A stretch of 64,000 nucleotides of DNA from Candidatus Nomurabacteria bacterium RIFCSPLOWO2_01_FULL_42_17. Lineage in GTDB: Bacteria > Patescibacteriota > Minisyncoccia > Phycocordibacterales > UBA9973. Below, in pieces: positions 5,961 through 7,178 of the stretch (within the stretch, counting starts at the first letter, position 1; every line of letters begins with the position of its first letter). The position numbers and the translations under genes were made by a program. The notes beneath the pieces were generated by a model. The model was not told the DNA's origin, ran no database searches, and saw nothing but the letters and a program-made list of their open reading frames with translations. Where the stretch lies: NCBI GenBank assembly GCA_001785985.1, contig MFVE01000005.1, positions 233,771 to 297,770 of the forward strand, written 5' to 3'.

Positions 5961-7178
5961 ATGAAAATTTCTTCTTTAAAAATTTCTTTTGGACTAGCTT
6001 TTTCTTTTTTTTCTTTCTTATTTTTCTTATTCTACTTATTCTCTTTGCCTTTTATCGCGGGAGCTGGAGATGATGACAATATGGCCGGCTACGCTTGGTC
6101 TTCAAACATCGGCTGGATCAGTTTTAATAACACAAGCGGCGGCGGGAGTGTAGATTATGGTGTGAACAAGAACGCTGATGGCACATTAACCGGCTACGCT
6201 TGGTCTTCAAACATCGGCTGGATAAAATTCGGTGGTCTTTCTGGTTTTCCTTCTGGGGCGCAGACATATGCGCAGAATGCAAATGTGAGTGACGGTGAGC
6301 TAAGAGGATGGGCGAGAGCTTGTGCTGGTATGGATGATGAACCGCCTACACCGCCGAACCAAACAACTCCCAATAATACTTGTAGTGGTGATTCACGTAC
6401 TGATGGTTGGGACGGTTGGATCTCTCTTGCTGGCACGGGCTATGGCGTAACTTTGTCCGGTACTAGTTTCGAGGGTTATGCTTGGGGCTCGGATGTTGTA
6501 GGCTGGGTTGATTTTAGTGGTGTTGTTGTCGGCGCCGGCACTGGTACCTGCACTGATAGCACCCAAAATGGAGACGAAACAGGCATTGATGCCGGCGGTC
6601 GTTGCGACGAGGGTACTTGCTCGGATGGCATCCAGAACGGAAATGAAACTGCGGAAGATAGTGGCGGCCGTTGCGGAGCTGGCACCTGCACTGATGGCAG
6701 TCAAAATGGAGATGAAACAGATATTGACACTGGTGGCCGTTGTGACGAGGGCACTTGCTCGGATGGCATCCAGAACGGAAATGAAACTGCGGAAGATAAC
6801 GGCGGCCGTTGCGGAGTTAGCACTTGCTCGGATGATACCAAGAACGGTAATGAAACTGCAGTTGATTATGGCGGTCGTTGTATTGTAGAAGGCGACTGGA
6901 GTGATTGGAGCCCATGCGTGGGCGGTGATCAAACTCGTACTTGTACGAATCCGCCACCTTCCGGCGGTGGAGCTAATTGTAGCGGACCTTCTTCGCGAGT
7001 TTGCGGTTCTTCCGAAGACGGTACTTGTTCCCAAACTCATTACGACTGTTCTTCTCAAGAGACGAGCATCAATCAGATCAGCAGCCCTACCAAGTGGACA
7101 TGGACTTGTCCTGGCTCAGATGGCGGCGCAGATATAATCTGCACCGAAACCAAACGGCCCGGATTTATAGAGGATTAA
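5961..7178 (+). CDS. Secreted Cys-rich repeat protein with thrombospondin-like motifs (pilus-adjacent putative adhesin)
   Basis: The start is moved to the ATG at 5961 ([14 protein letters not shown]... signal peptide, preceded by tataat). The protein has three [13 protein letters not shown] repeats, five to six tandem ~21-aa units of TC(S/T)DGxQNG(N/D)ETxxDxGGRC, and then [22 protein letters not shown]..C.G, which resembles a TSP type-1 repeat. Confidence 0.65.
   Translation: [405 protein letters not shown]

Follow-up and report, generated by a model that had tools for sequence, protein, structure and literature searches.

Gene X, as we call the + strand open reading frame (ORF) at 5961..7178 of the 64,000-nt stretch from Candidatus Nomurabacteria bacterium RIFCSPLOWO2_01_FULL_42_17 analysed here (the window), belongs to a very large, undescribed protein family that we name after its two constant ends: a Trp-rich barrel domain with GWAWS motifs and a short C-terminal PxFxEx tail. 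With moderate confidence, we read its product as a Sec-exported, disulfide-bonded modular surface protein of Nomurabacteria (Paceibacteria, candidate phyla radiation, CPR), most likely an adhesin. Conservation across the family lies in the two ends and not in the Cys modules, which form a variable middle, and in X this middle includes a block that sequence comparison assigns to the thrombospondin type-1 repeats (TSRs). Genes of the family are followed by the type IV pilus gene pilB far more often than expected by chance; the linkage is frequent, not obligatory. The exchangeable middle, which in relatives draws on known adhesin modules (CARDB, Big_2, fn3, PKD, InlB-type repeats, TSP_1), was counted in favor of the adhesin reading, and the tail-bearing secreted and fibre-like neighbours of family genes in favor of a surface protein.

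From its ATG at 5961, X encodes 405 aa plus stop. The same frame can also be read from a TTG (5874..7178, 434 aa, in a mechanically compiled ORF list), and the N-termini of homologues (MKISFLKI...) line up with the ATG. An earlier note on this DNA had placed a secreted protein of 406 aa here, correct except for a length that should read 405, and had divided it into three modules, all of which we see. Over its full length the protein is 100% identical to the NCBI entry ‘hypothetical protein A2917_03335, Candidatus Nomurabacteria bacterium RIFCSPLOWO2_01_FULL_42_17’.

A first homology search with X returned at least 1950 homologues at E ≤ 1e-3, and the source names among the matches listed are all of Parcubacteria, Paceibacterota or Patescibacteria type. 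A profile search covering 1.84 billion cluster representatives (clusters at 50% identity) then gave 8928 representatives at E ≤ 1e-3 and 2769 at E ≤ 1e-30; X, the first row of the 97-member alignment A1, scores 328 bits against the family profile. The X protein itself has no match in Pfam (at E ≤ 10), NCBIfam or PHROGs, and these empty searches leave readings as TSP_3, EGF_CA, cell-wall-binding, GW, SLH, LysM or sorting domains without support. Among the 97 aligned members, Pfam finds CARDB (5), Big_2 (2), fn3 (2), TSP_1 (2), PKD (2-3) and InlB-type repeats (2), and nothing in most. The order of modules is shuffled even between close relatives (e.g. P0003 and P0004). Full-text literature searches on TSRs in Parcubacteria/Patescibacteria, on the DCGG-type repeat and on CPR sorting signals returned no relevant paper.

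The family also settles whether the region is a functional gene at all. Several long ORFs overlap X in other frames (6393..7058 on the – strand, 221 aa; 6508..6888 on the + strand, 126 aa; 6476..6691 on the – strand, 71 aa), and together with the lack of Pfam and NCBIfam matches they might suggest low-complexity or repeat-generated noise. Against this stand thousands of homologues, conserved residues and conserved Cys spacing, significant TSR profile matches and confident AlphaFold2 (AF2) models for three modules of X, so that a noise origin is refuted and has next to no chance of being right. We read the alternative-frame ORFs as spurious, as had been suggested for the long antisense ones, since they lie wholly within a gene with thousands of homologues and in a GC-rich stretch. 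The G+C content (GC) of X is 49.6% overall and reaches 52% in its repeats and TSR, whereas the window has 40.5% and pilB 44%. The high GC of X could reflect its Gly/Cys/Asp-rich composition or a foreign origin of the cassette.

Export is indicated by a predicted signal peptide at 5961..6065 (+; residues 1-35), with a basic n-region, a long hydrophobic core, P30 and an A-x-A site at which signal peptidase I is predicted to cut (A33-G34-A35 / G36). A35, at position –1, is at least 90% conserved across the 97 homologues, in which the site reads AFA/G, VFA/G or ASA/G. We infer from these features that X is exported via Sec and that its signal peptide is removed by signal peptidase I, in line with the secretion proposed earlier. 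No class III (prepilin) motif is present in the N-terminus of X, and Pfam gives no N_methyl match to it; with a classical Sec signal in its place, X is ruled out as a type IV pilin or pseudopilin. The mature protein is rich in cysteine: 20 residues in total, two in a loop of the barrel, ten in the repeat units, four in the TSR and four in the last module. The even count in every module fits an oxidised extracellular protein.

The N-terminal Trp-rich domain (6078..6530, +; residues ~40-190) defines the family and is predicted to form an eight-stranded antiparallel beta-barrel. It contains hairpins of GWAWSxNIGWIxF type, exact at 6087-6125 (+; residues 43-55) and at 6192-6230 (+; residues 78-90), and diverged at 6474-6515 (+; residues 172-185), where the hairpin is 14 aa long; of the three 13-aa repeats reported here before, two are therefore exact and the third is present in diverged form. 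Thirteen residues of the domain are invariant in the family (W46, G51, W52, G78, W81, G86, W87, P97, G116, D151, G152, W153 and W175). The AF2 model of the domain is all beta, with a predicted local distance difference test score (pLDDT) of about 88-97, and a Foldseek search of the full X model against the PDB and BFVD (viral models) gave nothing significant. On this model the domain is best described as an unclassified barrel with eight predicted strands. An outer-membrane barrel of OmpA/OmpW type was considered and not adopted, the likeness being one of topology only. Some members of the family carry three to seven copies of the domain; P0262, P0282 and P0290 have five to seven per polypeptide and reach 2159 aa.

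Downstream of the barrel lie five tandem two-Cys units of 23 aa each, TCxDGxQNG(D/N)ETxxDxGGRCxxx (6546..6890, +; residues 196-310). The tandem Cys units had been recognised before as five to six copies of 21 aa; the arrangement stands, and the count and length become five and 23. Tandem Repeats Finder reports the array at 6541-6881 with a period of 69 nt (score 287) or 138 nt (score 441). The units are ordered (A-B)(A'-B')-C, with DNA identities of 94% between units 2 and 4 and 81% between units 1 and 3, and the former value points to a recent duplication of a two-unit block. Copy number varies from one to five among homologues. The spacing C-x17-C is fixed in each unit, and the D, N, E, D, G and G positions vary little or not at all across the CPR copies, which argues for structured units and not for low-complexity filler; although copy number varies, the Cys spacing is kept in homologues. 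AF2 did not model the repeats confidently, either in the X model (pLDDT <50) or in a second run that covered the repeats and the TSR and drew on an alignment of repeat-bearing proteins (mean pLDDT 54.8).

The relatives of these units, found by searching with the repeat array and a two-unit alignment, are four-Cys repeats of the form TCxDGxQNGDETGxDCGGxCxxC. Their carriers are Bacteroidota (Croceivirga, Zobellia, Xanthomarina, Cryomorphaceae, Saprospiraceae) and myxobacteria (Sorangium, Polyangiaceae), joined by a small number of entries whose labels name rotifers or protists. Matches between CPR units and the four-Cys repeat are reciprocal, at E 1e-20 to 1e-4. In the two-unit alignment A4, C, D, N, E, D, G, G and C are invariant, and in alignment A2 (33 units, Bacteroidota forms included) both Cys and the D, E, D, G and G positions are. 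The two kinds share the core TCxDGxQNGDETGxD-GG-C and the habit of standing in tandem arrays, which for the four-Cys repeat lie at the ends of secreted proteins. They differ in that the second and fourth Cys are both gone from the CPR unit, whose last Cys is preceded by a conserved Arg. The joint absence suggests that a presumed C1-C3 disulfide is retained and a presumed C2-C4 disulfide lost. By sequence, then, the 23-aa unit is derived from an un-named four-Cys repeat and retains two Cys; Pfam, run on the Bacteroidota proteins built of that repeat, has no model for it.

This parentage bears on the proposal that the units bind calcium and are related to TSP type-3 or EGF_CA repeats. Small acidic loops framed by Cys frequently bind Ca2+, and D, N, E and G are abundant in the unit, where D, E and D stand at invariant positions; to this extent the proposal had some appeal. 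Pfam nevertheless reports no TSP_3 or EGF_CA match in X at E ≤ 10, the 33-unit profile matches no solved structure in the PDB (best E 0.37, an unrelated protein), each unit has two Cys only, and the X sequence lacks the type-3 signature DxDxDGxxDxxD. With its relatives forming a separate four-Cys repeat family, homology to TSP type-3 or EGF_CA repeats is refuted at the sensitivity of the Pfam, PDB and relative searches, and we consider the calcium-module proposal very unlikely.

One further copy of the unit exists in the window. A six-frame scan for the core [QK][ND][GQ][DN]E[TS] found six sites only, the five units of X and a single unit, SCTDGIQNQDETGVDIGGVCT, at 27203..27265 (+), within a 934-aa protein (26726-29530, +) described earlier as lipase-like and sharing the unit. 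It is an LCAT-type alpha/beta hydrolase (PF02450, E 3.3e-12) with its own signal peptide and a hydrophobic C-terminus (...YAMILGVVGLAYLSKMFFIKV) that points to a membrane anchor at this end, unlike the tail of X.

The block that follows the units (6891..7010, +; residues 311-350) is, on the evidence of its sequence, a true TSR, of the four-Cys subtype seen in complement C7 and C8beta. In a single-sequence phmmer search against all PDB chains, the C7 TSR came first (E 7.9e-6), followed by C8beta, UNC5B/D, BAI1 and TSP-1; counted on the phmmer alignment, 21/35 residues are identical between X and C7. Profile A3, made from nine TSR segments of the family, matched thrombospondin-1 at E 1.9e-20 and 45 PDB chains in all, every one a TSR protein (among them UNC5, properdin, ADAMTS13/5, C6-C8, CSP, TRAP, MIC2, F-spondin and isthmin). 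These matches bear out the earlier impression that the block reads like a TSP type-1 repeat. The X segment has no match to Pfam TSP_1 (PF00090) at E ≤ 10 and hence stays below the gathering score of 21.6 bits, which homologous segments exceed in P0008 (34.5 bits) and P0002 (24.5 bits); membership of the query in TSP_1 accordingly rests on transitive and profile evidence. AF2 models the block with a pLDDT of about 85, and the best Foldseek matches of the X model in the PDB, properdin TSRs, are not significant (E 0.46), so that the TSR fold is supported by sequence and not independently by structure.

In its details the block agrees with the C7 and C8beta repeats. The WSxWSxC start (W313-S-D-W316-S-P-C, with the W-x-x-W pattern intact), the TR stretch ahead of the next Cys, the core NPxPxxGGxxC and the final Cys are all found in X, and the CSxxCG Cys is missing together with its partner, the last Cys of six-Cys forms, as it is in C7 and C8beta; the TSR of P0008 keeps all six Cys. 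X departs from established TSRs in having a single Arg (T-R-T) and no R-x-R ladder, two Trp only, a place in a CPR bacterium and bacterial modules alongside. TSP1 domains are cell-surface adhesion domains of animals and apicomplexans, animal-type and laterally acquired in the latter (PMC3417536). The suggestion that X is built from eukaryote-like adhesion motifs thus holds for the TSR and fails for its other modules, which are bacterial.

After the TSR comes a second four-Cys module, C-x3-HY-x-C ... W-T-W-x-C-x-G-x2-GG-x4-C (7011..7142, +; residues 351-394), with an AF2 pLDDT of 85-92 and no match in Pfam. Many close homologues have it too; it is duplicated in some (P0015, P0049) and stands ahead of the repeats in others (P0003, P0004).

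The protein then ends in the tail KRPGFIED (7152..7175, +), in which P400-G-F402-I-E404-D follows the motif P-x-[FY]-x-E-x-COOH. In 185 non-identical members, E occupies position –2 in 156/185 (background frequency of E, 2%), P position –6 in 137/185 and F or Y position –4 in 121/185; in the 97-homologue alignment P400 and E404 are at least 90% conserved. The tail is kept whatever domain precedes it, and in P0003 and P0004 it follows the 23-aa unit directly. Its i, i+2, i+4 spacing of P, F/Y and E and its low pLDDT (47) fit an extended, exposed peptide. No transmembrane (TM) helix or basic stretch follows the tail in X or in the 185 relatives, and without a hydrophobic segment it is not a signal of sortase or exosortase type. 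A sortase, exosortase or archaeosortase sorting domain was rejected on the same grounds and for want of an NCBIfam match. Like LPXTG, PEP-CTERM and PGF-CTERM signals, the tail is a short conserved C-terminal motif of co-encoded secreted proteins, reading P-G-F in this clade; unlike them, it has only two or three residues after the motif, and no sortase-like gene is conserved nearby.

To place the family in its genomic setting, we located PilB, PilC, pilins, NusA, triosephosphate isomerase (TIM) and phosphoglycerate kinase (PGK) in 80 loci carrying the N-terminal domain, from different species representatives, of which 54 have enough downstream sequence to be informative. Within 6.5 kb downstream on the same strand, pilB follows X in 24/54 loci, directly (gap <200 bp) in 11. 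Linkage is spread over three tiers of N-domain similarity (10/20, 9/20 and 5/14), and the linked PilB proteins span at least two levels of divergence, at about 1000 and about 750 bits. It persists in the P0008 locus (L081/L082), where pilB lies downstream in spite of toxin-antitoxin insertions. There (L081:419-8077/L082), AbiEii and a HEPN/nucleotidyltransferase pair stand upstream of X and a Polbeta/HepT pair between X and pilB, and the X-pilB junction seems to be an insertion hot spot.

In the window itself, pilB (7195..8958, +; PF00437 T2SSE E 1.6e-120, MshEN E 5.8e-11) starts 16 nt after the X stop codon at 7178, with no terminator-like site in the gap, as expected from the earlier statement that X lies directly upstream. 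A pilC-type platform gene follows (about 9629..10846, +; PF00482 T2SSF E 1.8e-55, in two stretches), and then four pilin-like genes on the + strand (10846-11307, 11308-11844, 11841-12347 and 12286-13641), whose prepilin-type N-termini read KKG/ITLVEVLIV, RRG/FMVIEILVA, NDG/YTIFELLFY and NSG/AAMLISVIF; the first has N_methyl and GspH matches. Beyond them lie tpiA, pgk, recJ, rnhA and comEC. Upstream of X, nusA (4580-5740, –) is separated by a terminator-like hairpin (5787-5766) from two overlapping sigma-70-like promoter matches at 5913..5954 (+; TGGATA-18-TATAAT and TTGAGG-17-TATAAT, each 10/12, as matches to consensus only). By their sequence and position these are the likely start of an X-pilB transcript, and co-transcription of the two genes is plausible. 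The best promoter-like match of the region (8964-8993, 11/12) lies elsewhere, inside an insert of ~670 bp between pilB and pilC (8959-9628), a gap that measures 8-130 bp in close relatives; the insert holds a 158-aa ORF (9054-9530, +) with no Pfam or PHROG match and an overlapping 162-aa ORF (9012-9500, –).

Clustering all ORFs of the 80 loci revealed no conserved partner enzyme near X, neither a sortase nor a peptidase nor anything comparable; what recurs is limited to nusA, pil genes, housekeeping neighbours and further secreted proteins. These secreted proteins are of two kinds. Ten signal-peptide ORFs of up to 1183 aa lack the N-domain and end in an X-type tail, and all of them adjoin X (e.g. 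L004:4793-6847, L008:3561-7112, L008:7250-8539, L012:10868-13501, L014:7623-9824, L018:2405-5071 and L045:5479-7563); few or no Pfam matches are found in them, and those are Ig-like. A strict tail pattern is met by 48/1326 ORFs of at least 120 aa, all on the strand of X and all X or its neighbours. Present on co-encoded proteins that have no barrel, the tail behaves as an independent tag.

The second kind, secreted family Y, occurs in at least 27/80 loci, usually immediately downstream of X, and 20/27 of these loci are without pilB. Its mature N-terminus follows W-[ST]-G-P-[TS]-x-x-P-P-x-G-N-x-x-x-P-[IL]-N-[VI]-G-x-x-x-Q-x-K-x-G-G-L (examples at L016:11423-12517, L026:2951-3928, L051:11081-11863, L073:10863-11666, L063:7443-9509 and L008:8642-9817). 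Some members carry Peptidase_S74 (E 4e-16) or collagen repeats, which points to trimeric fibre-like proteins. X consistently sits among genes for surface appendages, pili or fibres. The 64-kb window has neither a Y-like ORF nor a second tail-bearing ORF.

Under our preferred reading, signal peptidase I would free mature X outside the membrane, and one or both constant ends would mount the protein non-covalently on the envelope or on a surface appendage. This appendage may be the type IV pilus (T4P) encoded directly downstream, and in other lineages a trimeric fibre; the variable Cys-knotted cassette would be the exposed part, touching host or substrate. Surface retention, adhesive function and any contact with a pilus are proposals within this reading. 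Several observations weigh against it. No pilB lies nearby in 30/54 informative loci, and a pilin-like ORF is found in only 2/55 loci without pilB. In L022, L040 and L051, X is kept between nusA and tpiA-pgk and pil genes are absent; in L077, likewise devoid of pil genes, tpiA-pgk are kept downstream of X, so that part of the pilB linkage may be inherited synteny. The repeat region has no confident AF2 model, and the AF2 monomer leaves the tail (pLDDT 47) undocked from the barrel; in such a model this speaks weakly against a strong contact within the molecule and tells little about contacts between molecules. The pilus association proposed earlier thus gains the downstream pilB genes and their frequent direct adjacency, and is tempered by the loci with no pil genes and by X not being a pilin itself.

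A closer tie to the pilus would make X a pilus-dependent cargo or tip protein, with its C-terminal tail as the linear signal by which it docks on a minor pilin. X opens the pilB-pilC-pilin cluster and is followed by a short gap with no terminator; the recurrence of this arrangement elsewhere, L081/L082 included, speaks for such a tie; and a conserved, unstructured tail with i, i+2, i+4 periodicity is what strand-type docking would lead one to expect. Precedents would be TcpF of Vibrio cholerae and CofJ of enterotoxigenic E. coli, which are Sec-exported, encoded in operons of type IVb pili and bound to the tip minor pilin by a short terminal peptide. Sec export, a gene in a pilus cluster and a short conserved terminal peptide are common to them and X, whereas their signal is N-terminal, their sequences are unrelated, and X is also found with no pilus genes nearby. 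The tail, moreover, is equally conserved in loci lacking pil genes, and tail-bearing neighbours cluster with X and not with pilB. CPR cells are not known to have an outer membrane, so that a pilus-driven export step is not obviously needed. We regard a cargo or tip role as unlikely.

Alternatively, X could be a pilus-independent scaffold of the envelope or of a fibre base, whose barrel receives the tails of neighbours or of X itself, the N-termini of Y, or both; pilB adjacency in the Nomurabacteria-like clade would then be inherited synteny (nusA, X, ..., tpiA pgk). The ten tail-bearing ORFs that all adjoin X genes would fit such a role, as would the position of Y immediately downstream of X in many loci, most of those with a Y-like ORF having no pilB, the Peptidase_S74 and collagen repeats of some Y members, the loci that retain X between nusA and tpiA-pgk, and the multiple N-domain copies of some family members. 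Set against this, the AF2 monomer does not dock its own tail, the window offers no Y-like or second tail-bearing partner, a linkage that extends over two divergence levels of PilB is more than trivial synteny, and the role of the barrel as receptor is pure inference. A scaffold role seems to us doubtful, and we keep to the surface adhesin as the preferred reading.

As an adhesin, X would resemble the MSCRAMM- and InlB-style proteins of Gram-positive or monoderm bacteria, which have, like the X family, a signal peptide, a constant part, variable modules and variation in repeat number. It differs from them in having neither LPXTG nor a TM anchor, and no LysM, SLH, GW or choline-binding domain match in Pfam or NCBIfam; what is constant in it is a beta-barrel without a domain model and a tail of six residues.

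Two other genes of the window deserve mention in their own right. The 1206-aa class I aminoacyl-tRNA synthetase encoded at 35038-38658 (+; tRNA-synt_1, Anticodon_1, DUF5915) contains a His_Phos_1 histidine-phosphatase domain (E 7.7e-30, residues 534-693); placed after tRNA-synt_1 (44-530) and before further synthetase matches, it looks like an insertion in the catalytic region. At 30026-32728 (+) lies a complete MmeI-type (type IIL) restriction-modification fusion in which all five MmeI domains match strongly.

The TSR of X gives a clear example of an adhesion domain of animal type in a CPR bacterium, which taken alone is a curiosity and not a surprise. Most worth following are the constant barrel and the terminal hexapeptide of the family, two conserved handles around a rapidly exchanged, disulfide-knotted middle, in genes that often head a pilus operon or stand beside fibre-like genes. 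Speculatively, and with odds that we would put on the low side, the constant ends may belong to a new CPR surface-assembly system, with the PxFxEx tail as tag, the barrel or a minor pilin as receptor, and cassettes on pili or fibres that hold the host. If so, variable cassettes, laterally acquired animal-type TSRs among them, would be mounted non-covalently on pili or fibres. CPR bacteria (Patescibacteria) are thought to live attached to host cells, and to our knowledge almost nothing is known about the molecules that make this contact in the huge Paceibacteria branch. In cultivated Saccharibacteria, T4P and predicted surface adhesins are essential (PMC11665869). With at least 8,900 clusters and no model in Pfam or NCBIfam, the family is a source of testable candidates, both for molecules of host attachment and for a new terminal tag.

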